The notes beneath the pieces are model-generated. The model searched no databases, had not been told where the DNA came from, and was given only the letters and a program-made list of their open reading frames with translations. A DNA stretch of 41,286 nucleotides from a virus (taxonomy: Duplodnaviria; Heunggongvirae; Uroviricota; Caudoviricetes): the IMG/VR virus record IMGVR_UViG_2851933302_000002, positions 1 to 41,286 of that record, one strand, 5' to 3'. The stretch's first letter is position 1, and each line of letters begins with the position of its first letter. Below are positions 1 to 22,607 of this stretch, piece after piece. A program made the position numbers and the translations under genes.

Positions 1-1131
1 TCAAATGACCAGTTTTTTCCATTCCTTACCGCGTGCGTCGTTGTAAATATCGGTCATTTTTTGATTCGAATGGCCTAGCAAAATTTTGGTATCAACCCCC
101 TGCTCTCTGAACAATCGCTCTGATAAAGATCTCTGCTCATGGAAAGAGGGAGGGGTGCCATTAGCACGCCAGTTGTAATCCACAGAATCCCGGGCTTTTT
201 TAAATGCAACGGTTAATGTTGCTGGCTTAACCATCCCGCCGCGCTTAGCTGTCCCTTTCGCGTGATGGTGGTGCAATAGCCACGGACTAAGAACGCAATC
301 GCGGCAGGATGACACCACATCATCTAGGGTGAGATTTAATTTATCGCAACGCAGAGCCAGAGGGATGGCAATCCGGGTTCCTGTTTTTTGCTGTTCGACA
401 TGAAGATAACCATCCCGGATATCCGAAAATTGCATTTTGCAAATATCTGAAAGGCGCTGGCCTGTCATCAGTGCCAGCAGCATACCGCGCTGTAAAAAGT
501 AACCATCCTTTTCCGCTGCGTTATAAATCATCATCCACTCATCAAAAGTCAGTCGCTGTCTTGATATCCGCACCTGCGGTTTTTTTGCCGATTCTGCAGG
601 GTTAAAGCCTGGCGGGACATCGCCCGTTTGCTGAGCTTCCCGGAAAACATCGATCAGTACTTTCCTGAAAATTTGTCCCATTCTGTTATGTCCTCTGGCC
701 TTGTACTCTTCCAGTACTGATACCACATCTTTTACGGTTATGGCATCTAACGGTCTGGTGCCAAAACGTTCATCAAATACCCTGAGAGGGGCCGCTTTCT
801 GTTTCAGCGTGTTGAGTTTGATCTCGCCGTTTTCATATCTTTCCTGTTGAATTTTTCTGTAATTATTCAGAAAAATGGTAACGGTTGATGAACCGCCGGT
901 ATCACTAATAATTTTCTCCTGCAGACTGAGCATTTGTTCCATTTGCTGCCGGGCAAGACGGCTGTTCGCTTCTGCTGCAATAGTTTCTGCCAGTTTCTGG
1001 TCAATACTGCCGAGACCGTGATTTTTGCCTGTTATGGGATGCCTGTAACGCCAGTAAACTTTGTTATTTCTTTTGTCAAAATACGGAGATAATCCCGGAA
1101 CATCGGTTTTATATTTTCGCGGGCGCGCCAT
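1..1131 (-). CDS. int: Phage integrase (tyrosine recombinase, lambda Int family)
   Basis: 376-aa ORF at the prophage edge. The C-terminal region carries tyrosine-recombinase-like motifs (HxxR, catalytic-Tyr region near the end) as I read them. The start overlaps the upstream xis-like gene. Confidence 0.9.
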   Translation of the reverse strand: MARPRKYKTDVPGLSPYFDKRNNKVYWRYRHPITGKNHGLGSIDQKLAETIAAEANSRLARQQMEQMLSLQEKIISDTGGSSTVTIFLNNYRKIQQERYENGEIKLNTLKQKAAPLRVFDERFGTRPLDAITVKDVVSVLEEYKARGHNRMGQIFRKVLIDVFREAQQTGDVPPGFNPAESAKKPQVRISRQRLTFDEWMMIYNAAEKDGYFLQRGMLLALMTGQRLSDICKMQFSDIRDGYLHVEQQKTGTRIAIPLALRCDKLNLTLDDVVSSCRDCVLSPWLLHHHHAKGTAKRGGMVKPATLTVAFKKARDSVDYNWRANGTPPSFHEQRSLSERLFREQGVDTKILLGHSNQKMTDIYNDARGKEWKKLVI

Positions 1132-1421: not shown

Positions 1422-3893
1422 TTAAAAATCAGCCTGATTCGGGATCAGTTTTTGCCAGATAGCTGAAACGTATTTTGCCTGGTAACGGGCATCATCCAGC
1501 GCATTGTGGCGCTCACCTTCGAATGGGATAGCAGTTCTGGCATCGAAGTCTACGGCTTTCCCCAGCTCAACGATTGTGCGTACATCGCGATCGTTGCAGT
1601 AGCGCCACGGGCAGGGGATACCCTGTCGTTCGTATGAACGGCGCAAAATCGTGTTGTCGAAGTTGGCCCCATTACCCCAGACCTGAACAAAAAACTCACC
1701 GGAGTTTTCGTCGATAAATTCCCGCAATTGCAGTAGTGCATCATCTAACGGGATTTCATCGGTCATAATGGCAGACTGCGCTTCACGTGATTGCTTCAGC
1801 CACCATTTAATGACGTCACGATCAATGACTCCGCCAGCAGTATCCAGATCGATGGTCTTGCTAAATTCTGGTCCCATATCTCCGGTTTGCGGATCGAAAA
1901 ATATTGCGCCTATTGAGATAATCGGGGCATCGGGATTTTTTCCCATGGTTTCAAGGTCGATCATCAGATGAATCCCCGCTCTGCTGGTGGATGTGAGATT
2001 ATGATGACTGTTCGCCTTAATTAAGGGATCTGACGCCTCGCCAGTTTCACTATCGCTGGCATGATGCTGATTGCCGCCAGTGTTCTCCTTGTGCTGATGT
2101 GCAGTACCTTCCATTTCCTCCGGATCATTTTCCTGAACTTCAGGCTGATTCTCTTCATCGAATATTTCCTGGTATGTTGCGTCGCCCATCACCGCGCCAC
2201 AATCAGGGCAGTTGCCGCCGCCGGTCTGACCGCAGGCGGTGCAGACTTTTTCCGGTTCCTGTTGCGCCACTGGTTCAGGCTGTTTCGTTTCTGGCTCGTT
2301 TTGTAACGCATTTGGGCTGTTTTGTTCCGCTTTCTGGTCGTTCTGTTCCGTTTCTTGCTGGTTCTGGTTCACAGAATCGCGGGTTTCAATCCCCTTCACC
2401 CATTTCGGATCATTCGGGTCGCTAATCCCTGCAACAAATTCACCACGTGATGCGGCGAGCAACTGATTGGCGTCAGGCTGGCTGATATTGGCTGCCTGCA
2501 TAATTTTCTTTACTTCGTCAGCGGTAACTTTTACCGGTTCTGGTTGTTCAGAATTTTGTGCGGTATTTGCATTTTGCGGTAAGCCTGTGTATGTGCCATT
2601 TTTTCGGGCAAAATATTCTTCTTTTGTGATTTCAGTAGCCCCGGCAGCCAGCGCCTTATCCAGACCAGAAAGTTTGTTTGCGCGACCGTATTTTTCGCAA
2701 TCCTTGTCGGTGAAGAAGAAGTAGAACGGCCCCTCACGCTCTACAGATGGTTCGACTTCCACTTTGCATTCGGTTTTTTCGTTGTCCGGAATTGCCGTTT
2801 CCACTGCATCAGTTTCTGGTACTGGCGACGAGAGAGTGTCAGTTGCGCTCTGATTTGTTCCTTCATCTTCAAACACGCCCTTTGTAGTCAGGTATTCAGT
2901 AATGTATTTGTTCAGTGCCACAGGGTCTTTGTGAATGTCGATCGGACGTTCACGGACAAGGCCAAAAATAGTCTGGCGGTCGTAGCGAAGGGCATCAGGC
3001 TGTTTGCGCATTGATGCCGAGATACTCTTCCAGTCTTCGCGGTCGTTGTCGATAACTTCATTTTTTGCCCAGCGATGGATGCTGCCGTCAATGTTTCCGG
3101 CATCCACATCACCAGGCCAGAGAGCGTAGGCCAGTTCGTCATCCAGTGTTTTCCATGTCTGCTTATATTCGCGACGAATGACTGCAGTGACAGGGGGGAT
3201 TTTTTCTGCTGAGTTTTCAGTGTGCTGTCGGTGGACTCTGGCGCGGGCGAGATCAACAACAGACGTGTATTTTCCGGTTTCCTTGCGTTCACCTTCGCGA
3301 CGTTTTTTCCAGATGCGCATCTCTGCCTGAATTTCGGGCCATTTGGCACCAGGCTTACATTTATGCTTAACCCACCCGATGGCATGCAGCTTAAGCTCCG
3401 GATACATGGCGTTAACTTCTGGCATTTTCATCAACGCTTCAACGATATGTCCGTCGAATGTTGCCATGTCTTCCTGCAACAATTCCTGCGCGCTAATCAC
3501 CATATCAACGGTGATGTTTTCACATGTGTCGAACTTAACCATGACAGCGTTCTGTACTTCAGGGGCCAGCTTGTCAAAAGCGACGTTCATCGGATCTGAT
3601 TCAGTCTCAACCGGGACAAAGGAAGTAGCCCCCTCATCCCAGCGGTTTTCCTGCATATATTCAGCATCCCATGAATCGAGGGCAGGGCGGGGTATACCGG
3701 GTTTATCCTCGCAAACAAGAAATTTATAAGCGCAGTCCTGAGCAGCCGGATAATGCTCCAGGAATTGCCAGTGAAATTTTGCGCGGGCGCGACGTTCATC
3801 ACCGGCTTCAATGGCAGTGGCTACAGCGACTGCACCTTCTTCCTTTATTGCCTGTTCGTCCGGAATGGCGGCGCAAATAAAGACTTTACTCAT
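1422..3893 (-). CDS. Large phage exonuclease with C-terminal DnaQ-like DEDDh 3'-5' exonuclease domain and internal zinc ribbon
   Basis: 823-aa ORF. C-terminal DEDDh motifs are visible: Exo I (IDLET), Exo II (NGANFDNTIL), Exo III (HNALDDARYQ). A central CTACG...CPDCG zinc ribbon is flanked by Q/E/N-rich low-complexity linker. Sits where exo/recE genes lie in lambdoid prophages; no recT/bet partner is seen. Confidence 0.75.
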   Translation of the reverse strand: MSKVFICAAIPDEQAIKEEGAVAVATAIEAGDERRARAKFHWQFLEHYPAAQDCAYKFLVCEDKPGIPRPALDSWDAEYMQENRWDEGATSFVPVETESDPMNVAFDKLAPEVQNAVMVKFDTCENITVDMVISAQELLQEDMATFDGHIVEALMKMPEVNAMYPELKLHAIGWVKHKCKPGAKWPEIQAEMRIWKKRREGERKETGKYTSVVDLARARVHRQHTENSAEKIPPVTAVIRREYKQTWKTLDDELAYALWPGDVDAGNIDGSIHRWAKNEVIDNDREDWKSISASMRKQPDALRYDRQTIFGLVRERPIDIHKDPVALNKYITEYLTTKGVFEDEGTNQSATDTLSSPVPETDAVETAIPDNEKTECKVEVEPSVEREGPFYFFFTDKDCEKYGRANKLSGLDKALAAGATEITKEEYFARKNGTYTGLPQNANTAQNSEQPEPVKVTADEVKKIMQAANISQPDANQLLAASRGEFVAGISDPNDPKWVKGIETRDSVNQNQQETEQNDQKAEQNSPNALQNEPETKQPEPVAQQEPEKVCTACGQTGGGNCPDCGAVMGDATYQEIFDEENQPEVQENDPEEMEGTAHQHKENTGGNQHHASDSETGEASDPLIKANSHHNLTSTSRAGIHLMIDLETMGKNPDAPIISIGAIFFDPQTGDMGPEFSKTIDLDTAGGVIDRDVIKWWLKQSREAQSAIMTDEIPLDDALLQLREFIDENSGEFFVQVWGNGANFDNTILRRSYERQGIPCPWRYCNDRDVRTIVELGKAVDFDARTAIPFEGERHNALDDARYQAKYVSAIWQKLIPNQADF

Positions 3894-10159: not shown

Positions 10160-10846
10160 ATGACCCCAATAAAAATATTTATGACTATTGCTGATTTCAA
10201 ACGGCCTAAATTGGAGCTCCCAAACGGGGCAAACAAACTACTACTGCACTCTTGCTGTGCTCCATGTTCCGGTGAAGTGATGGAGGCGCTTCAGGCCTCG
10301 GGAATCGACTACACCATCTTTTTCTACAACCCGAACATTCATCCTCAGAAAGAGTATTTAATTCGTAAGGATGAAAATATTCGCTTTGCTGAACAACACG
10401 GCGTGCCGTTTATCGATGCTGATTACGACACCGACAACTGGTTTGAACGTGCCAAAGGAATGGAATGGGAGCCTGAGAGGGGGATCCGTTGTACCATGTG
10501 TTTTGACATGCGTTTTGAGCGGACAGCGTTGTACGCTGCTGAAAATGGTTTCAGTGTGATCAGCAGTTCACTGGGCATTTCACGCTGGAAAAATATGCAG
10601 CAGGTTAACGAGTGTGGGCGGCGAGCTGTTGCGCATTATCCGGGTATGGTGTACTGGGATTATAACTGGCGCAAGCAGGGCGGCTCGTCCCGTATGATTG
10701 AAATCAGCAAGCGCGAAAAATTCTATCAGCAGGAATATTGTGGCTGTGTGTATTCTCTGCGCGATACCAATCTACACCGCAAATCTCAGGGACGCCCTCT
10801 TATCAAAATTGGCCAACTCCACTACGGAAAAGAAGAGAAGGAGTGA
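10160..10846 (+). CDS. QueH-like protein (DUF208, epoxyqueuosine reductase family)
   Basis: 228-aa ORF with the [11 protein letters not shown] motif and further Cys residues (CTMC, CGC) that I recall as characteristic of DUF208/QueH. Family assignment is from memory of the motif. Confidence 0.65.
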
Positions 10847-12736: not shown

Positions 12737-13102
12737 ATGACTGAACGCATAGAATTTGTTTTGCCTTACCCGCCAACGGTGAACACTTACTGGCGACGTC
12801 GTGGCAGCACATATTTTGTATCAAAAGTCGGTGAGCGTTATCGCCGTGATGTGGCGCTTATTGTTCGCCAGCAGCAACTGAAATTAAACCTGTCCGGAAG
12901 GCCGGCAATAGAAATTATTGCAGAGCCACCGGATAAGCGCCGTCGTGACCTGGACAATATCCTGAAGGCACCACTGGATGTACTGACGCATGCGGGGCTG
13001 CTCATAGACGACGAGCAGTTTGATGAAATTAATATTGTGCGCGGTCAGCTTGTTCCTGGTGGGCGGTTGGGGATAAAAATCACAGAACTGGAGTACGCAT
13101 GA
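12737..13102 (+). CDS. rusA: Holliday junction resolvase RusA
   Basis: 121-aa ORF with the RusA-like N-terminal motif (LPYPPTVNTYW) and an acidic catalytic region. Classical position upstream of Q. Confidence 0.85.
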   Translation: MTERIEFVLPYPPTVNTYWRRRGSTYFVSKVGERYRRDVALIVRQQQLKLNLSGRPAIEIIAEPPDKRRRDLDNILKAPLDVLTHAGLLIDDEQFDEINIVRGQLVPGGRLGIKITELEYA

Positions 13103-13788
13103 ATAACCAGTATTTACAGTTTGTTCGTGAGCAACTCATGATTGCCACCGCCGATTTGAGTGGATCAACAAAAGGGCAGCTTGAGGCCTGGCAGGAGAAT
13201 GCCATGTTTGATACAGGGCGTTACAGGCGTAAAAAAATCCGGTACCGCGATGAAGTGACTGGAAAAATGATAACGCGGGATAATCCACCAATCCCGGGAA
13301 AGCAATCGCTGGCGAAGGGGGTGTCAATTCCTCTCGTCAGTCCGGTTGAGTTTTCGACATCATCGTGGCGGCGGGCTGTTCTGTCTCTTGAAGAACATCA
13401 TAAAGCCTGGTTGTTGTGGTGTTACAGCGGGAGTATTTGTTGGGAATATCAGATCGCGATAACGCAGTGGGTGTGGAATGAATTTAAAACCCGGTACGGC
13501 ACCAGAAAAATTGCAGGGAAAACGCAGGAGCGCGTGAAGAAGTTGATCTGGCTGGCGGCACAGGATGTCAGAGGATGGATTACCGGGTGTGAGGTCTACC
13601 AGAGACAGGAGCTTGCCAGACTGTGTGGAGTTAAGCCTGATAACTGGAGCCATAATTATGCGAACTACTGGCGTGAGATGTGCGATATTTTTAAGAGTCT
13701 CGATAGAGAATCTGTGATTTGCACCGTGAAAATAAGAGCGCAACAAAAAGCGACTTTTTCACGACGAGATATTGCAAAAGTCAATTAA
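13099..13788 (+). CDS. Late-gene antiterminator Q-like protein (phage 82/Qin QuuQ type)
   Basis: 229-aa ORF overlapping the rusA stop (ATGA). Size and position fit the large Q family; followed by a promoter/terminator-like intergenic region. No motif-level confirmation. Confidence 0.55.
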   Translation: MNNQYLQFVREQLMIATADLSGSTKGQLEAWQENAMFDTGRYRRKKIRYRDEVTGKMITRDNPPIPGKQSLAKGVSIPLVSPVEFSTSSWRRAVLSLEEHHKAWLLWCYSGSICWEYQIAITQWVWNEFKTRYGTRKIAGKTQERVKKLIWLAAQDVRGWITGCEVYQRQELARLCGVKPDNWSHNYANYWREMCDIFKSLDRESVICTVKIRAQQKATFSRRDIAKVN

Positions 13789-14350: not shown

Positions 14351-15400
14351 ATGCTTAATACTGTAAAAATATCCAGTTGTGAGTTAATCAACGCCGACTG
14401 CCTGGAATTTATCCGGTCGTTACCCGAAAATTCTGTTGACCTGATAGTCACGGACCCGCCGTACTTTAAAGTGAAGCCTGAGGGCTGGGATAACCAGTGG
14501 AAGGGCGACGATGATTACCTGAAGTGGCTGGACCAGTGTCTGGCGCAGTTCTGGCGGGTGCTGAAACCTGTCGGAAGTCTTTACCTGTTCTGTGGTCATC
14601 GCCTGGCATCTGATATCGAAATCATGATGCGTGAACGCTTCAGTGTGCTGAACCATATTATCTGGGCGAAGCCGTCCGGACGCTGGAACGGATGCAACAA
14701 GGAAAGCCTGCGGGCGTATTTCCCCGCCACAGAGCGCATTCTGTTCGCGGAACATTATCAGGGGCCGTATCGTCCGAAAGATGCCGGGTATGCGGCGAAG
14801 GGCAGTGCACTGAAACAGCATGTGATGGCCCCGCTGATTTCTTACTTTCGTGATGCGCGCGCGGCCCTGGGGATAACGGCAAAACAGATTGCAGATGTCA
14901 CAGGAAAGAAAAACATGGTGTCGCACTGGTTCAGTGCCAGTCAGTGGCAGCTACCGAACGAAAGCGATTATCTGAAATTACAGTCGCTGTTTGCCCGGGT
15001 GGCAGAAGAGAAACATCAGCGCGGTGAACTGGAAAAGCCCCACCACCAGCTGGTGGATACGTATACGTCACTGAACCGGCAGTATGTGGAGCTGCAGAGT
15101 GAATATAAGCATCTGCGGCGGTATTTTGGTGTGACGGCGCAGGTGCCGTACACGGATGTATGGACACATAAACCGGTGCAGTTCTATCCCGGGAAACATC
15201 CGTGCGAAAAACCGGCAGAAATGCTGCAGCAGATAATCAGCGCAAGCAGTCGTCCGGGTGACCTGGTTGCAGATTTTTTTATGGGCTCAGGTTCAACGGT
15301 AAAAGTGGCACTGGCGCTCGGGCGTCGTGCGATTGGCGTTGAACTGGAGACCGGACGTTTTGAGCAGACAGTCAGGGAAGTTCAGGATTTAATCGTTTGA
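14351..15400 (+). CDS. DNA methyltransferase (beta-class N6-adenine/N4-cytosine type, orphan)
   Basis: 349-aa ORF with motif IV DPPY (TDPPYF) preceding motif I FxGSG (FFMGSGST), i.e. permuted beta-class order. No adjacent restriction endonuclease gene. Confidence 0.85.
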   Translation: MLNTVKISSCELINADCLEFIRSLPENSVDLIVTDPPYFKVKPEGWDNQWKGDDDYLKWLDQCLAQFWRVLKPVGSLYLFCGHRLASDIEIMMRERFSVLNHIIWAKPSGRWNGCNKESLRAYFPATERILFAEHYQGPYRPKDAGYAAKGSALKQHVMAPLISYFRDARAALGITAKQIADVTGKKNMVSHWFSASQWQLPNESDYLKLQSLFARVAEEKHQRGELEKPHHQLVDTYTSLNRQYVELQSEYKHLRRYFGVTAQVPYTDVWTHKPVQFYPGKHPCEKPAEMLQQIISASSRPGDLVADFFMGSGSTVKVALALGRRAIGVELETGRFEQTVREVQDLIV

Positions 15401-15449
15401 AACGGATGAGATTGCAGAATTAATTACGCACCATTATTATTCTGCTCCC

Positions 15450-15525
15450 GGCCCTTTAGCTCAGTGGTGAGAGCGAGCGACTCATAATCGCCAGGTCGCT
15501 GGTTCAAATCCAGCAAGGGCCACCA
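15450..15525 (+). tRNA. ileZ: tRNA with anticodon CAT (Ile2/Met type; ileZ-like)
   Basis: 76-nt cloverleaf. Acceptor stem GGCCCTT/AAGGGCC, anticodon CAT at 15483-15485, T-loop GGTTCAAATCC, 3' CCA. Confidence 0.85.
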
Positions 15526-15532
15526 TCACATA

Positions 15533-15609
15533 CCGCCATTAGCTCATCAGGAAAGAGCGCCAGCTTTCGAAGCTGGTTGCGCGGAGTTCGGGTCCCCGAA
15601 GGCGGTCCA
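15533..15609 (+). tRNA. argN: tRNA-Arg (anticodon TCG; argN-like)
   Basis: 77-nt candidate. Anticodon stem CCAGC/GCTGG with loop TTTCGAA (anticodon TCG), 3' CCA. One mismatch in the acceptor stem and one in the T-stem. Confidence 0.7.
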
Positions 15610-15622
15610 TTATCTGTATCCT

Positions 15623-15699
15623 GCGTTGTTAGCTCAGCCGGACAGAGCAATTGCCTTCTAAGCAATCGGTCACTGGTTCGAATCCAGTACAACGCGCCA
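15623..15699 (+). tRNA. argO: tRNA-Arg (anticodon TCT; argO-like)
   Basis: 77-nt cloverleaf. Acceptor GCGTTGT/ACAACGC, anticodon loop CTTCTAA (TCT), T-loop GGTTCGAATCC, 3' CCA. Confidence 0.85.
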
Positions 15700-15714
15700 C
15701 ACTTATTTTCCCTG

Positions 15715-15737
15715 GCTCGCTTTTGCGGGCTTTTTTT
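15715..15737 (+). terminator. Terminator-like hairpin after the tRNA cluster
   Basis: GCTCGC-TTTT-GCGGGC hairpin followed by T7. Confidence 0.55.
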
Positions 15738-15743
15738 AAATGT

Positions 15744-15960
15744 CTCACAATTCAGGCGGTTGACTGTTGTCTGGTTTGCGGGGAGTTTGTTAAAAGAAAC
15801 TGGCATGGTGAATCCCCCTGTGCGGAGGGGCAATCAGCGAGTAGGTATATGGGATAATCGCGGATTCAGGTGCTGGTACTGAATTCACCGGGAGGCACCC
15901 GGCACCATGCAATGGCACATAGCGCCACTCTCCAGCCCCTCTCCGGAGGGGCTTTTCTGT
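15744..15960 (+). repeat. Structured repeat unit, copy A (promoter-like TTGACT plus hairpins plus terminator)
   Basis: Shares blocks with copy B: CTCACAATTCAG..GTTGAC, GCATGGTGAATCCCCCTG.GCGGAGGGGC, CACCGGGAGGCACCCGGCACCATG, and the terminator hairpin AGCCCCTCTCCGGAGGGGCT followed by T-run. Confidence 0.6.
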
Positions 15961-16147
15961 GCCGGATACATCACAGTTTCTGGAACCTTAGGTACTACAG
16001 TATCAGTCAGGGTGCTATATTTTCAGATGTGATGAAAGCCTGTCAGCAGGCAGGGCGTATCGGAAATGACCCAGTAGAGAAAACGTTGACTCAGATACCG
16101 GTGCTGAGTTACCGGGAAACCGGCATCACATGACCGCTATCCTTCCA

Positions 16148-16174
16148 GGCCCATCCGCTCCGGTGGGCCTTTTT
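16148..16174 (+). terminator. Rho-independent terminator between repeat copies
   Basis: GGCCCA-(10-nt loop)-TGGGCC hairpin followed by TTTTT. Confidence 0.6.
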
Positions 16175-16211
16175 ACTGCAGAAAACAGGTTCCCCGTTAA
16201 ATGCTATGTTG

Positions 16212-16446
16212 CTCACAATTCAGTAAGTTGACAGTTGCCTGTCAGACTGGGCATTTGTTAAAAAAATTTCGCATGGTGAATCCCCCTGAGCGGAGGGGCG
16301 ACTGGTGACGGTATAATCTCTGATTATCAAAACGAGAATGACGCGGGTTTAGTGGCACCGGGCTGAACTCACCGGGAGGCACCCGGCACCATGTGCATGA
16401 TGATACAGATACGCGGCTTTAGCCCCTCTCCGGAGGGGCTTTCTTA
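16212..16446 (+). repeat. Structured repeat unit, copy B
   Basis: Second tandem copy of the copy A element. Contains TTGACA, a perfect TATAAT at about 16309-16314, the same GC hairpins and the AGCCCCTCTCCGGAGGGGCT terminator hairpin. Confidence 0.6.
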
Positions 16447-16451
16447 TGGAC

Positions 16452-16480
16452 AAAAAAAGCCCGCGCTGGGAGACGCGGGC
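16452..16480 (-). terminator. Minus-strand rho-independent terminator
   Basis: GCCCGCG-CTGGGAGA-CGCGGGC hairpin preceded by A7 on the plus strand, i.e. a T-run after the hairpin on the minus strand. Confidence 0.5.
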
Positions 16481-16673
16481 GGCAAGGAATAAACAATAAA
16501 ACGTGAAGTAATATTTCAGCTGGCGAATAATACCCCATAGTAATCACTCTGCGCAACTGCGCGGTCTTTTTCGAATTGCGGGCTGTAGTCTCCCTTCTGC
16601 CATTGTCCTGTAACTTCCGGACTTCAGCCTGCTCCTTATCTGACTCACAACATTATCCCGCCCGGGAGGATTC

Positions 16674-18527
16674 ATGGCATTTAAACACTATGACGTGGTC
16701 AGGGCGGCATCGCCGTCAGACCTTGCGAAACGACTGACACAAAAACTGAAGGAGGGCTGGCAGCCGTTTGGTAGTCCGGTGGCCATAACCCCTTATACCC
16801 TGATGCAGGCGATTGCAGCAGAAGGTGATGTGGTCGTCAGTGGTGCAACTGAGCCGGAGTGGTACTACGTCATCGTACTGGCCGGGCAATCCAATGCCAT
16901 GGCTTACGGTGAAGGGCTTCCGCTTCCGGATTCATACGATGCGCCCCATCCGCGCATTAAGCAACTGGCCCGTCGTAACACAGTGACTCCCGGTGGTGAA
17001 GTATGCGTATTTAACGACATCATTCCTGCTGACCATTGTCTGCATGATGTTCAGGATATGAGTACGATTAACCATCCCCGGGCTGACCTGAGCAAAGGGC
17101 AGTACGGCTGTGTCGGACAGGGCTTACATATTGCCAAAAAACTGCTTCCGTATATCCCTAATAATGCGGGGATCCTGCTGGTACCATGCTGTCGTGGTGG
17201 TTCGGCATTCACCCAGGGCACGGAGGGGACATTCAGCGAGTCCACGGGAGCCAGTCAGGATTCGGCTCGCTGGGGAGTGGGTAAGCCGTTATATCAGGAT
17301 CTGCTTTTCCGCACGAAGGCAGCATTGCAGAAAAACCCGAAAAACGTTTTGCTGGCGATATGCTGGATGCAGGGGGAATTCGATATGACGAATGCCAGTT
17401 ACGCCCAGCAGCCAGCAGCATTTCTTGCAATGGTACAGCAGTTCCGTGCTGACCTTGCCGGGCTGGCGGCGCAGTGTCACGGTGGAAGTCCGGCATCAGT
17501 CCCCTGGATTTGTGGCGACACGACATACGCGTGGAAACAAGAACACGGTACGCAATATGAAGTGGTATATGGTGCATATAAAGGTAAAGAATCCCAGCAG
17601 ATTTATTTTGTTCCCTTTATGACCGATGGTAGCGGAGTTAATACACCGACAAACAACCCGTCAGAAGATCCTGATATTGCCGGGTCTGGTTATTACGGTT
17701 CGGCATCCCGAACGAACAAAAACTGGGTATCATCAAATCGCCCGACGCATTTCAGCTCATGGGCGCGTCGTGGCATTATTCCCGATCGTATGGCAACTGC
17801 TATTCTGAACGTAGCCGGTCGCACCTTAGCCTTCATTAGTGGTAAGGCACCGGAAATCAAACCCTCGCCCGGCGGCGACACGCCATCGGGGCCGTCTGAA
17901 GATGCATCCATACGCACAATCTCCCTGTTGCCGACAGCCGGAGACGCTGCTGCGCAGGGCTGGAGCATTAAGAATGGCGGAATTCAGTTGTCAGATGGTG
18001 TATTTAAGATCACCAAGCAGAGCAATAAAGCCTGGTCCCTGACGCGCCCGGTGGATGACGCAGTCTCCCTGCTGACACGGGGTGGCAGACTGAGCTGTAA
18101 GTTTCGACTGTCAGGCGCACTGACCAACAACCAGTTCGGTCTGGGAATTTATCTGTATACCGATGTAGCGTTACCTGACGTCGTGGCGATGACCGGGACT
18201 GGTAACCCGTTCCTGATGTCGTTCTTCACCCAGACCACAGACGGCAAACTGAATCTGATGCATCACAAGAAAGCAGGAAACACAAAGTTGGGCGAGTTCG
18301 GGAATTACAGTAACGACTGGCAGACGCTGGAGCTGGTGTTCACCGCCGGCAGTGCCACGGTTACTCCGAAACTGAATGGAGTGGCTGGCCCGGCATTCCA
18401 GGTCATAAAAGACAGTCTGACACTGGGGCTGAATGCGCTGACGCTGACGGATATTACCAAAAATGCAGCGTATGGCGTTGAGATAGAAAGTCTGGTGCTG
18501 GAGATAAATGCACCGGCATCATCATAA
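16674..18527 (+). CDS. nanS-p: Prophage sialate O-acetylesterase (NanS-p-like; SASA esterase domain)
   Basis: 617-aa ORF with SD GGGAGGA. N-terminal module followed by an SGNH/SASA-like esterase motif (VLAGQSNAMAYG). Sits between the tRNAs and the lysis cassette, as in Stx-type lambdoid phages. Confidence 0.75.
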   Translation: MAFKHYDVVRAASPSDLAKRLTQKLKEGWQPFGSPVAITPYTLMQAIAAEGDVVVSGATEPEWYYVIVLAGQSNAMAYGEGLPLPDSYDAPHPRIKQLARRNTVTPGGEVCVFNDIIPADHCLHDVQDMSTINHPRADLSKGQYGCVGQGLHIAKKLLPYIPNNAGILLVPCCRGGSAFTQGTEGTFSESTGASQDSARWGVGKPLYQDLLFRTKAALQKNPKNVLLAICWMQGEFDMTNASYAQQPAAFLAMVQQFRADLAGLAAQCHGGSPASVPWICGDTTYAWKQEHGTQYEVVYGAYKGKESQQIYFVPFMTDGSGVNTPTNNPSEDPDIAGSGYYGSASRTNKNWVSSNRPTHFSSWARRGIIPDRMATAILNVAGRTLAFISGKAPEIKPSPGGDTPSGPSEDASIRTISLLPTAGDAAAQGWSIKNGGIQLSDGVFKITKQSNKAWSLTRPVDDAVSLLTRGGRLSCKFRLSGALTNNQFGLGIYLYTDVALPDVVAMTGTGNPFLMSFFTQTTDGKLNLMHHKKAGNTKLGEFGNYSNDWQTLELVFTAGSATVTPKLNGVAGPAFQVIKDSLTLGLNALTLTDITKNAAYGVEIESLVLEINAPASS

Positions 18528-18612
18528 AAAGTGAGCCAGCCAAATGGAAGGTATCGTTAAACTCACCGGTAGTGTCAGTGGGTCGTCTGAGATGCCTGCA
18601 TGAGTTATCAGA

Positions 18613-18643
18613 GCCATCAGTACTTAACTGGTGGCTTTTTTTA
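18613..18643 (+). terminator. Terminator-like hairpin after nanS-p
   Basis: GCCATCAG-TACTTAA-CTGGTGGC hairpin (one G-T pair) followed by T8. Confidence 0.5.
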
Positions 18644-18677
18644 TTGTTGTCAGCTTCCGGATAACGGGAGACGGGGT

Positions 18678-18893
18678 ATGTACCAGATGGAAAAAATCAC
18701 AACAGGTGTGTCATACACCACGTCAGCGGTGGGAACGGGCTACTGGTTCCTGCAGTTGCTGGACAGGGTTTCCCCGTCTCAGTGGGCGGCAATAGGCGTG
18801 CTGGGGAGTCTGCTGTTTGGGCTGCTGACATATCTGACTAACCTGTATTTCAAAATCAGAGAGGACCGTCGTAAGGCTGCACGGGGAGAGTAA
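18678..18893 (+). CDS. S: Holin, phage 21 S-type pinholin with dual start
   Basis: 71-aa product [13 protein letters not shown]...[36 protein letters not shown], near-identical in its C-terminal two-thirds to my recollection of S21. Dual-start Mets at 18678 and 18687. Confidence 0.85.
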
Positions 18894-18897
18894 TTCA

Positions 18898-19242
18898 ATG
18901 ACTCAAAACTATGAACTGATTGTGAAAGGGATCCGCAATTTTGAGAATAAAGTTACGGTAACTTTAGCGTTACGGGACAAAAAACGCTTTGACGGTGAAA
19001 TTTTTGACCTGGACATCTCGCTGGACCGTGTTGAAGGTGCCTCGCTGGAGTTTTATGAGGCAGCAGCCAGAAGGAGCATCAGACAGGTCTTCCTGGATGT
19101 TGCTGCCGGGTTATGTGAAGGGGATGAGCAGTCGCCGGAAAAGCGCCCCGTAATTTTAGAGGCGCAGGATGTGTTGATAACCTACAGAGGAAAACTACCG
19201 GGAATAATTACGGGTTCTCTGAAGAGTCCGCCGAAATGGTAA
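18898..19242 (+). CDS. Hypothetical protein inserted between holin and endolysin
   Basis: 114-aa ORF starting 5 nt after the holin stop, with SD GGAGAG. No recognisable family. Confidence 0.5.
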   Translation: MTQNYELIVKGIRNFENKVTVTLALRDKKRFDGEIFDLDISLDRVEGASLEFYEAAARRSIRQVFLDVAAGLCEGDEQSPEKRPVILEAQDVLITYRGKLPGIITGSLKSPPKW

Positions 19243-19480
19243 TTTTACCAGCATATTTTTCATCCAGTAATACAGCAAGCCGCCTGAAAGAGTCTTGTTG
19301 TTCCTGAGACCATTTGGGATTGCATGATTCAAACTGGATTGATGCCAGCGTTGATTGCATCTGTTCCCTTGGAATTGAGAATGCCAGATATGAGAAGGCG
19401 ACGGTAAGGGTATTCACGTCTTCCCGAAGCCTGGAAATGCTGTCGAGCAACTCCTGTAGAGAAATGGTGTTATTGTCCAT
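19208..19480 (-). CDS. Hypothetical protein, antisense to the late operon
   Basis: 90-aa ORF on the opposite strand with SD GAGGA. Its 3' end overlaps the 3' end of the 114-aa gene by 35 nt. A 7-bp-stem hairpin lies in its upstream region (19513-19534). Confidence 0.5.
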   Translation of the reverse strand: MDNNTISLQELLDSISRLREDVNTLTVAFSYLAFSIPREQMQSTLASIQFESCNPKWSQEQQDSFRRLAVLLDEKYAGKITISADSSENP

Positions 19481-19585
19481 AAATAATCCTCATGATTGTA
19501 TTGACCTGTTAGCAGCCTGAGGCAACAGGCTGGAACTGATAAACATATCTAGGGCTCAGAAACCGATAAATCCTGATAAATATCC

Positions 19586-20119
19586 ATGAACGCAAAAATC
19601 AGATACGGCCTGTCGGCTGCCGTTCTGGCGCTGATTGCCGCTGGTGCGCCTGCGCCTGACATTCTCGACCAGTTTCTGGATGAAAAGGAAGGTAACCACA
19701 CCACGGCATACCGTGATGGCGCGGGTATCTGGACCATCTGCCGCGGTGCCATCCTGGTGGATGGCAAACCTGTCGTTCCGGGCATGAAGTTGTCGAAGGA
19801 AAAATGCGACCGGGTTAACGCCATTGAGCGTGATAAGGCGCTGGCATGGGTGGAGAAAAACATCAGAGTGCCATTGAGTGAACCCCAGAAAGCGGGGATC
19901 GCGTCATTCTGTCCGTACAACATTGGTCCCGGTAAGTGTTTCCCGTCGACGTTTTATAAACGAATTAATGCAGGTGATCGCAGGGGAGCGTGTGAGGCGA
20001 TTCGCTGGTGGATTAAGGACGGTGGCAGAGACTGCCGTGTCCGCTCAAATAACTGTTATGGTCAGGTATCCCGTCGTGACCAGGAGAGCGCGCTGGCGTG
20101 CTGGGGAATCGACAGATAA
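19586..20119 (+). CDS. R: SAR endolysin (phage 21 R-type lysozyme with N-terminal signal-anchor-release domain)
   Basis: 177-aa ORF. N-terminal hydrophobic Ala/Gly-rich SAR segment (LSAAVLALIAAGAPA) followed by a lysozyme core (E...D...T) resembling R21. Confidence 0.85.
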   Translation: MNAKIRYGLSAAVLALIAAGAPAPDILDQFLDEKEGNHTTAYRDGAGIWTICRGAILVDGKPVVPGMKLSKEKCDRVNAIERDKALAWVEKNIRVPLSEPQKAGIASFCPYNIGPGKCFPSTFYKRINAGDRRGACEAIRWWIKDGGRDCRVRSNNCYGQVSRRDQESALACWGIDR

Positions 20120-20213
20120 GCAGAATATTTTGCTGAAAAATAAGGTATGGCCACGCGGGCGGATAACACGAAATCCTGCGAACTGGCGAAACGTAAGTGA
20201 ATAAAAGTAAAAA

Positions 20214-20249
20214 CCCCGTTTGTTGGCACCAAGCGGGGTTTTGTGTTTC
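20214..20249 (+). terminator. Terminator-like hairpin between endolysin and downstream small ORF
   Basis: CCCCG...TTGG-CA-CCAA...CGGGG hairpin followed by TTTTGTGTTT. Confidence 0.5.
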
Positions 20250-20278
20250 CTGACTCCGGAAAAGTCAAAGGAGAAAGT

Positions 20279-20416
20279 GTGTTTGATTTTAGCAAACTGA
20301 TTCGGGAGATTCGAGTGATGGCTGAAAAATTATCCACCTGGAAGTTCATTCTTATCTGGCTGGTGTTTGTGATTATGGCCTCCGGTTATTTCATCGGTCA
20401 GATACGCTGGTGGTGA
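20279..20416 (+). CDS. Small single-pass membrane peptide between R and Rz
   Basis: 45-aa ORF from GTG at 20279 with SD AAGGAG at 5-nt spacing; an in-frame ATG at 20318 gives a 32-aa version. Hydrophobic core [20 protein letters not shown]. Stop lies 1 nt before the Rz start. Not in the ORF track (under 60 aa). Confidence 0.35.
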
Positions 20417-20417
20417 A

Positions 20418-20885
20418 ATGAACCGCGTACTGTGCGTGGTCATCATTGCCCTGCTGGTGGCCTGTGGTGCGCTTAGTCTGGGGCTGAATCATTACCGTGA
20501 TAACGCCATTACCTACAAAGCCCAGCGCGACAAAAATGTCAGAGAACTGAAGCTGGCGAACGCGGCAATTACTGACATGCAGATGCGTCAGCGTGATGTT
20601 GCTGCGCTCGATGCAAAATACACGAAGGAGTTAGCTGATGCGAAAGCTGAAAATGAAACTCTTCGCGCTGACGTTGCCGCTGGTCGTAAGCGCCTGCGTA
20701 TCAACGCCACCTGTCCAGGTCCCGTGCGTGAAGCCACCGGCACCGCCCGCGTGGATAATGCAACCGGCCCCCAACTGGCAGACACCGTTACACGGGATTA
20801 TTTCACCCTCAGAGAGCGGCTGATGACGATGCAGAAGCAACTGGAAGGGGCGCAGGAATATATCCGTACTCAGTGCCTGAAATAA
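20418..20885 (+). CDS. Rz: Spanin, inner membrane subunit (Rz)
   Basis: 155-aa ORF with an N-terminal transmembrane segment and a coiled-coil periplasmic domain. Sequence closely resembles lambda Rz. Confidence 0.85.
20638..20823 (+). CDS. Rz1: Spanin, outer membrane lipoprotein subunit (Rz1), embedded in Rz +1 frame
   Basis: 61-aa ORF inside Rz in another frame. Lipobox-like LVVSAC followed by a proline-rich mature part. Confidence 0.85.
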
Positions 20886-22097: not shown

Positions 22098-22607
22098 GTG
22101 GCTACGCAGACTGAAGTTGCCAGGCATTTAAGTCTGACCGATCGCCAGCTTCGCAGATTGCAGAAATTGCCGGGTGCCCCGATATCGAATAAGCGAGGGC
22201 AACTGGATCTGGATGCCTGGCGCGATTTTTACATATCGTATCTGAGAAGAAGTAAAAACGATGTGCCTGATGGCGATAGCGAAGACGACTATGAGGAGAA
22301 ATTGCTTATTGCCAGATGGGAACTGACAGCAGAACAGGCTGTTACACAGCAGTTAAAAAATGAGGTGTCAAAAGGAAAACTTATTGACACCGGGTTCTGT
22401 ATTTTTGCCCTCAGCAAGCTGGCAATGGCGTTATCCAGTACGCTTGATTCCATCCCTTTATCCATGCAGCGACAGTTTCCTGATTTAACACCGCGCCATC
22501 TTGACCATCTGAAAACCCTTATTGCGAAGGGGGCAAATCAGTGTGCGCGGGCGGGGGATAAATTACCGGATTTACTCGATGAATATATCAGAGCAACAAC
22601 TGAATAA
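22098..22607 (+). CDS. Nu1: Terminase small subunit (Nu1-like)
   Basis: 169-aa ORF directly downstream of cos. N-terminal HTH (VARHLSLTDRQLRRLQ). C-terminal region resembles the Nu1 family. Overlaps the terminase large subunit start. Confidence 0.8.
   Translation: MATQTEVARHLSLTDRQLRRLQKLPGAPISNKRGQLDLDAWRDFYISYLRRSKNDVPDGDSEDDYEEKLLIARWELTAEQAVTQQLKNEVSKGKLIDTGFCIFALSKLAMALSSTLDSIPLSMQRQFPDLTPRHLDHLKTLIAKGANQCARAGDKLPDLLDEYIRATTE

Follow-up and report, generated by a model that had tools for sequence, protein, structure and literature searches.

The window analysed here is a stretch of 41,286 nucleotides (positions 1 to 41,286 of the IMG/VR record IMGVR_UViG_2851933302_000002), and comprises a complete lambdoid prophage of Escherichia coli. 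Between the holin and endolysin genes of its lysis cassette (18898–19585) lie two small convergent open reading frames: ORF1, on the forward strand, is a ydfR gene, and ORF2, on the reverse strand, belongs to the Ybl58/PHROG-2411 family. The region is best read as a pair of cytoplasmic accessory genes that are not lysis effectors, in which ORF2 and the C-terminal tail of YdfR are functionally linked and reciprocally expressed; we give this reading a probability of roughly 0.4. The functional link is drawn from the co-occurrence of ORF2 and the tail motif, which is repeated across genera and sites.

About a dozen independent contexts were examined for the pairing. In Citrobacter, Yersinia and uncultured phages, distant homologues of ORF2 converge on a small sense reading frame; the 3′ overlap of 7–47 bp is kept at every site examined, and the sense partners end in the motif found in the 114-residue YdfR of the window, YRGKLPGIITGSLKSPPKW (G.L....ITGSL..P). 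In YdfR the motif, YRGKLPGIITGSLKSPP, occupies residues ~96–112 and is encoded at 19183–19233 (forward strand), as delimited by alignment and by hhalign matches that are limited to the motif. A Citrobacter partner of 238 residues (locus L007) ends in IEGKIRNEKITGSLRVPMKL and precedes a cassette of lambda-S holin, CHAP-domain endolysin and Rz/Rz1; another from the same genus (L090), of 63 residues, ends in INGEIRNEKITGSLRAPIKL. The Yersinia partner (L005; 71 residues, ending in GELYSEKITGSLFAPLSAHPSE) follows tail gene I, a further 71-residue partner ending in KGNIFSDQIFGDLKKPPSY (L093–95) is found between tail genes M and L, as is the pair in L096, and a partner of 62 residues ending in KGGQLRYKRLTGDILIPLES (L091/92) sits beside terminase. 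In L217, the partner ends in DDVIFVDKLTAPPMKLRS and precedes another holin and a 110-residue endolysin that is M15-peptidase-like by eye. A Salmonella prophage (L221), with an HP1-type holin and lysozyme cassette, retains an intact partner next to a degraded ORF2.

The small partners begin with a stretch that resembles a coiled coil, and the motif comes after it. Codon differences within ITGSL between E. coli, Citrobacter and Yersinia are synonymous in the partner frame, indicating that it is the peptide that is conserved. The recurring unit is made up of the last ~20–30 codons of ydfR (the ITGSL tail) and ORF2, not of the whole of ydfR and ORF2. The 238-residue Citrobacter partner was considered as a YdfR homologue throughout its length and rejected, as only the tail motif aligns and Pfam gives nothing. 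In Atlantibacter, the partner-like reading frames found between M and L are opposed by other antisense reading frames, small and helical, one of which (83 residues) aligns in register with the ORF2 profile at a level that is not significant (hhalign E 0.006, probability 6%).

A first-pass annotation of the window had described a convergent two-gene cassette at this place, with ORF1 coupled to the holin stop codon and an antisense ORF2 with its own Shine-Dalgarno sequence, an upstream hairpin and a 3′ overlap. All of these features are present, and the recurrence of the pairing in other loci shows the convergent unit to be genuine. The searches made returned no earlier description of the pairing, which is new to our knowledge; the recurrent pair with its hairpin is a modest new observation, accessory genes and morons being well known in lambdoid late operons. 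Both genes are already catalogued, as ‘YdfR family protein’ and ‘hypothetical protein’, and the pair is abundant. The pairing makes function testable with few components: two small proteins, a motif of 17 residues and a single hairpin.

ORF2 (19208–19480, reverse strand) encodes 90 residues and matches phrog_2411 at E 1.1e-58 over 1–90 of 90. Its Shine-Dalgarno sequence, GAGGA (19487–19491, reverse strand), was read from the sequence 6 nt before the ATG and is kept in both E. coli allele groups. The 3′ ends of ORF1 and ORF2 overlap by 35 bp (19208–19242), so that the final ~10 codons of ORF2 are antisense to the conserved 3′ end of ydfR. Against alleles of ~80% identity, the ratio of non-synonymous to synonymous substitution rates (dN/dS) of ORF2 is 0.14–0.30. 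Among the other five frames of the same DNA, four have values of 0.64–3.1 and the antisense mirror frame 0.16–0.18, and all five carry stop codons. ORF2 is a real gene under purifying selection; that it might be a spurious or chance reading frame is ruled out by dN/dS together with the depth of the family. Homologues reach down to 25–40% identity with length and helix pattern kept, and the distant homologue P0186, which has a 71-residue partner, still matches phrog_2411 at E 2.5e-17. The family is small, with 62 clusters at 90% identity and, in a set of 1.84 billion proteins, 19 representatives; most members come from Escherichia, Shigella and Citrobacter. The exact ORF2 sequence occurs on at least 1000 contigs and is named Ybl58 by some sources; the literature search found that name in no paper, and DUF1327, the family of ORF1, in one, as a passing mention.

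The ORF2 protein is acidic (isoelectric point 4.5), soluble and without a hydrophobic segment. The AlphaFold2 model shows three helices (8–35, 38–52 and 59–77) and a disordered tail, with a predicted local distance difference test score (pLDDT) of 70. Structure prediction, which had been suggested as a check on both proteins, thus gave a three-helix ORF2 and a strand-helix YdfR, and no fold match for ORF2: Foldseek searches against PDB and BFVD returned nothing below E 0.5, and a PDB profile search was empty. There is no Pfam, NCBIfam or PADLOC family match. A weak likeness of ORF2 to Mip/Gp4, an anti-silencing protein, was treated as chance: it scores E 0.037 and 13.7 bits in NCBIfam, where the cut-off is 50, and E 1.3 for PDB 6yse.

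The DNA specific to ORF2 is a segment of 294 bp (19238–19531), delimited by alignment with the ORF2-less phage vB_EcoS-640R1, which has a 116-residue YdfR. Homology with this phage ends at 19237 and restarts at 19532, with ~21 bp in place of the 294 bp; on the endolysin side, the window is 100% identical to ORF2-less phages from 19557 on. The segment contains codons 1–81 of ORF2, its Shine-Dalgarno sequence and 51 bp upstream including the hairpin, and has a GC content of 0.442, compared with 0.532 in S and 0.552 in R. The boundary comparison with relatives that had been proposed therefore sets the limits of the insertion at 19238 and 19531, and the idea of a two-gene insertion between holin and endolysin stands for ORF2 alone: the other gene, ydfR, is integral to the essQ-ydfR-rrrQ arrangement of the Qin prophage. 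Across 80 IMG/VR loci, ORF2 accompanies all 60 of 60 YdfR alleles of 114 residues ending ‘...PPKW’, at a fixed distance from R, and none of 19 other YdfR alleles. Of 5426 complete E. coli genomes, 4304 contain some part of the 688-bp region and 1128 contain 80% or more of it; strains B1172 and MS 21-1 are 100% matches. Only three GenBank phage records carry ORF2. One of these, the Stx2k-converting phiSTEC1575 (L228, 1936–3954; Stx, Shiga toxin), has the order S21-ydfR-ORF2, then another pair of holins and, in place of R, an M15 metallopeptidase, and thus carries two holin systems.

With its sharp bounds, deviant composition and absence from close relatives, ORF2 is an added antisense gene that behaves in a moron-like manner. 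Morons, in the concept of Juhala and Hendrix, include bor and lom in lambda and ant between R and Rz in Stx phages. ORF2 resembles them as a small extra gene on the opposite strand in the late operon, like bor; it differs in that no clear promoter-plus-terminator frame was found around it, in that it overlaps its neighbour and recurs with the neighbour's 3′ end, and in being cytoplasmic rather than of the envelope. A serious though doubtful alternative is that ORF2 is independent cargo expressed in the lysogen, for superinfection exclusion, defence or anti-defence, and a chance neighbour of ydfR. Its antisense position in the late operon, its own Shine-Dalgarno sequence and the sharply bounded segment of lower GC content would all fit such cargo, as would the small size and the acidic, helical nature of its product, which are typical of phage inhibitors. 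The slot also has the look of a hot spot: in other phages it is occupied by small antisense genes, phrog_2572 (86–88 residues) and phrog_1853 (104 residues), to which no homology of ORF2 was detected. However, ORF2 has neither a transmembrane segment nor an enzymatic domain; PADLOC, Pfam and NCBIfam contain no family that it matches, and PDB and BFVD no matching fold. For ORF1 and ORF2 alike, PADLOC-DB gave no defence family at E up to 1, leaving the earlier suggestion of a defence or exclusion function unsupported. Moreover, one would hardly expect an unlinked gene to keep, from genus to genus and from site to site, one type of partner that converges on it, overlaps it and ends in one and the same motif.

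ORF1 (18898–19242, forward strand; 114 residues) is a late gene of the ydfR family. It matches Pfam PF07041 (DUF1327) over residues 1–111 at E 1.7e-42 (144 bits against a cut-off of 25) as well as phrog_406, is not a chance reading frame either, and its exact sequence is labelled ‘YdfR family protein’ by NCBI and UniRef. The ATG lies 4 nt past the TAA of the holin gene, with GGAGAG 8 nt upstream. This is also the start position of R in cassettes without ydfR; in phage PA27, which lacks the gene, R starts 4 nt after S, with the same spacing. In the Qin prophage of E. coli K-12 MG1655, the genes essQ-ydfR-rrrQ-rzpQ/rzoQ follow one another without gaps and the ydfR stop codon overlaps the rrrQ start, and the order holin-ydfR-endolysin is shared with Qin by the window and the 80 IMG/VR loci. 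Among 434 GenBank phage records with an S21-type holin, YdfR is present in 101 (~23%), including H-19B, BP-4795, YYZ-2008 and many Stx1a and Stx2c phages. An S directly followed by R is thus the commoner layout, as had been assumed. The possibility that these genes are conserved, annotated lysis-accessory genes of phage 21 relatives had also been raised; ORF1 is indeed conserved and annotated, but not as lysis-accessory. ydfR is among the commonest E. coli prophage genes without known function.

Beyond a common core of ~111 residues, YdfR alleles part ways, with lengths of 103, 104, 114, 116, 176/183, 211 and 268 residues. The longer alleles of 183, 211 and 268 residues (L002, 3299–4429; L003, 3288–4131; L076, 3001–3766) have differing C-terminal extensions, each of which converges on a different small antisense gene of phrog_2572 (86–88 residues) or phrog_1853 (104 residues). 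The variable YdfR C-terminus and the antisense gene seem to change together. In two further proteins of the YdfR family, P0107 and P0142, the N-terminal strand-helix unit is duplicated internally.

The AlphaFold2 model of the 114-residue YdfR (overall pLDDT 63) features three strands (5–14, 18–27 and 34–43) followed by a long helix (50–76); the strand-helix part reaches a pLDDT of ~70–82, and the C-terminus is poorly defined. K-12 YdfR (b1555) can be aligned with the window protein only over residues 1–74, at 80% identity, and these residues correspond to the predicted three strands and long helix. They are also the part for which binding to RNase E has been reported. K-12 YdfR emerged from a two-hybrid screen; in the two-hybrid assay it binds RNase E 1–597, residues 1–72 being sufficient, and it co-purifies with Rne 1–598 and pulls down nucleic acid that is resistant to DNase (Gopel et al. 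2026, PMC13232886). This was the only functional study of YdfR found. The window protein resembles K-12 YdfR as a full-length family member in the same slot, after an S21-type holin and before a lysozyme-family endolysin. K-12 YdfR differs in its length (103 residues), its other C-terminal part, the absence of the ITGSL tail and of an antisense gene, and the overlap of its stop codon with rrrQ; binding to RNase E and RNA has been demonstrated for the K-12 protein only (PMC13232886).

By homology with K-12 YdfR, residues 1–74 of the window protein probably bind the catalytic half of RNase E and/or RNA, which would suggest a role in RNA metabolism during late infection. If it is true that YdfR acts on RNase E at this stage, it would represent a new route for temperate phages into host RNA decay. 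Known systems that would be close to this include phage proteins directed at RNase E or at the degradosome, such as phiKZ Dip, T7 gp0.7 and T4 Srd. The ydfR-ORF2 region also sits inside the operon that drives the release of Shiga toxin in related phages.

ydfR is a regular member of a sizeable minority of S21-type cassettes and, in the preferred reading, would be transcribed with the Q-dependent late operon. ORF2 would be read against this operon, presumably from its own weak promoter; together with the YdfR tail it forms a conserved convergent unit that recurs at several late-operon sites of lambdoid prophages in different genera. Since the two transcripts would necessarily collide and have complementary 3′ ends, we infer a reciprocal pattern of expression, in which ORF2 would be produced by the lysogen or at an early stage of infection, and the tail-bearing partner once late transcription fires. 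The ORF2 protein most likely binds the tail of its partner or a host factor.

A weak sigma-70-like promoter candidate (19495–19525, reverse strand), consisting of TTGCCT, a 19-nt spacer and TACAAT, was found in our own scan, its −10 element ending 14 nt before the ATG; the hexamers are kept in the allele of 80% identity (TTGAAT/TACAAT). The region upstream of ORF2 can also form two mutually exclusive hairpins, CAGCCTG-N6-CAGGCTG and CCTGTT-N13-AACAGG (19507–19532, reverse strand), as predicted from the inverted repeat and by folding. The former is an inverted repeat at 19513–19532 with a 7-bp stem and a 6-nt loop. The same stretch, 19507–19532, at the edge of the ORF2 segment, holds the box GGCTGCTAAC, which resembles a box conserved upstream of distant homologues. 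In six of these a hairpin lies 25–40 nt before the ATG (L005, 4914–4947; L091, 3947–3982; L093, 3949–3990; L096, ~405–445; L097, ~770–805; L217, 4808–4835), with a nearly invariant loop, GGATGGCTGATTAAC, and a covarying stem: 94% of the cells are paired, four of the six pairs show compensatory changes, and none of 500 shuffles reaches the observed values.

Variants of the stem include CGGAG/CTCTG, AAAGAGG/CCTCTTT and CCGAAG/CTTCGG. The loop GGATGGCTGATTAAC can also be read as a three-codon mini-ORF, ATG GCT GAT TAA. The E. coli hairpin was rejected as an unusually stable structure (folding z = −1.1). The 14-mer box by itself was likewise rejected as a diagnostic mark: when viral contigs were scanned for exact copies, an ORF2 homologue lay downstream in only 2 of the 120 loci returned, the rest being probably chance.

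A more specific and fairly unlikely version of the proposal is that the Ybl58 gene, its 5′ stem-loop box and the ITGSL-tail partner make up an undescribed two-gene module at several lambdoid late-operon sites, with reciprocal expression in lysogeny and lytic growth and mutually interacting products; for instance, the lysogen could produce an inhibitor of an effector that is made late and which, in E. coli, would have been fused to an RNase E-binding domain.

Several observations weigh against the link between ORF2 and the tail, or against its extension to RNase E. Some ydfR alleles have the ITGSL tail without ORF2 (the 116-residue and the ‘...PPLA’ alleles), so the pairing is not obligatory; the convergent partner in L097/L098 has no clear motif; and two distant ORF2 homologues (L089 and L099) occur by themselves, in chromosomal rather than phage surroundings. 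A stricter scan for promoters and terminators listed neither for ORF2, and the sole promoter candidate has a 19-nt spacer and would leave a leader of ~7 nt. With respect to RNase E, the data come from an over-expressed K-12 allele without the ITGSL tail, and over-expression of YdfR alters few transcripts (PMC13232886).

One of the chromosomal homologues, P0197 (L099, 3001–3279; also L100), has 29% identity and is flanked by dinI and bssS, at a distance of three genes downstream from rne. Given the reported link between YdfR and RNase E, its position near rne is a curious coincidence.

A function in lysis itself finds little in the two proteins to build on. Transmembrane segments, signal peptides, lipoboxes and muralytic domains were sought in both by hydropathy, Pfam and PHROG, and none was found; the maximum 19-residue hydropathy is 0.69 for YdfR and 0.75 for ORF2. 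The initial impression that neither reading frame resembles a lysis protein is thus upheld. The pair could nevertheless tune the timing of lysis, either by modulating the triggering of the holin or through an ORF2 transcript which, antisense to ydfR and S, would keep leaky expression of the holin low in lysogens. The coupling of ydfR to S, and in Qin to R as well, would fit this, and as no terminator was found past ORF2, its transcript could run on antisense to S. Five kinds of lysis cassette have the pair, or relatives of it, inside them or directly upstream: S21 holin and R (the window and L006); S21 holin, second holin pair and M15 peptidase (phiSTEC1575-Stx2k); lambda-S and CHAP endolysin (L007); HP1-type holin and lysozyme (L221); and holin with the 110-residue M15-like protein (L217). 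In addition, PMC13232886 cites Paradis-Bleau 2014 for a K-12 ydfR mutant that was a hit in a screen for envelope integrity; we infer that polarity on rrrQ could account for this phenotype. We consider an effect on lysis timing unlikely, and the earlier suggestion to this effect is not supported, as the pair is also found between gpM and gpL, after gpI and beside terminase. Both proteins are soluble, with no membrane segment for contact with the holin, most S21-type cassettes function without either gene, and growth arrest has not been reported for over-expressed YdfR, unlike YegJ (PMC13232886).

The joint recurrence of two small genes at varied sites could also point to a selfish addiction module of the toxin-antitoxin kind, with the sense protein as toxin and the acidic ORF2 product as antidote, which would explain the mobility between sites. 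The overlapping convergent transcripts are reminiscent of the 3′ overlap of some type I toxin-antitoxin loci. Such loci, like ‘excludon’-type regulation, are convergent units that act by antisense or collision, and the 3′ overlap of opposed genes in the window pair and its relatives (7–47 bp across sites) is shared with them; the difference is that both partners here are conserved proteins and neither a toxin. Type II systems differ in turn, as the window genes are convergent, not co-operonic, and have no toxin-antitoxin domain. No toxin or antitoxin family was matched, both products are proteins under selection, and tail-bearing alleles without ORF2 are common and tolerated. In the Salmonella prophage the partner persists intact beside a decayed ORF2; were the partner a toxin, such a state would be lethal. 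An addiction module is therefore highly improbable.

The lysis genes on either side of the pair are of familiar types. The holin (18678–18893, forward strand; 71 residues, with the dual start MYQM) is an S21-type class II holin (Pfam PF04971, Phage_holin_2_1, E 2.3e-32, and PHROG holin families), which we take to be of the pinholin type by analogy with phage 21. Related phages annotate it as a 216-bp holin, and a 97-residue reading frame from 18600 is a spurious upstream extension of the holin frame. Inside this extension, ~40 nt before the holin start, lies a hairpin that resembles a terminator, combining a 12-bp stem with a T-run (18610–18638). The endolysin R (19586–20119, forward strand) belongs to the Phage_lysozyme family (Pfam PF00959, E 1.2e-23), and its hydrophobic N-terminal stretch is read, by analogy with R of phage 21, as a putative signal-arrest-release (SAR) domain. 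Rz, identified by Pfam, starts at 20418. The R-Rz gap (20120–20417, ~300 bp) holds a strong terminator-like hairpin with a 13-bp stem (20210–20242) within the late operon; in related phages this slot is occupied by ant or small reading frames. An Rfam scan of 18500–20500 gave no relevant match.

Elsewhere in the prophage, a lambda-type integrase is encoded at 1–1131 (reverse strand), followed by RusA (12737–13102), the antiterminator Q (13099–13788), a DNA methylase after Q (14351–15400), and genes for tRNA-Met, tRNA-Arg(tcg) and tRNA-Arg(tct) (15450–15699). Directly before the holin lies a gene for a 617-residue protein (16674–18527) with DUF1737, SASA esterase and DUF6645 domains by Pfam, which is read as NanS-p-like. 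The terminase genes (Nu1/gpA) begin at 22098. The layout of the late region from 14351 to 18527 is that of a Stx-type phage without stx. The early region encodes a QueH-like epoxyqueuosine reductase (10160–10846; E 1e-65), and an 823-residue protein (1422–3893) has a C-terminal Rv2179c-like 3′-5′ exoribonuclease domain.

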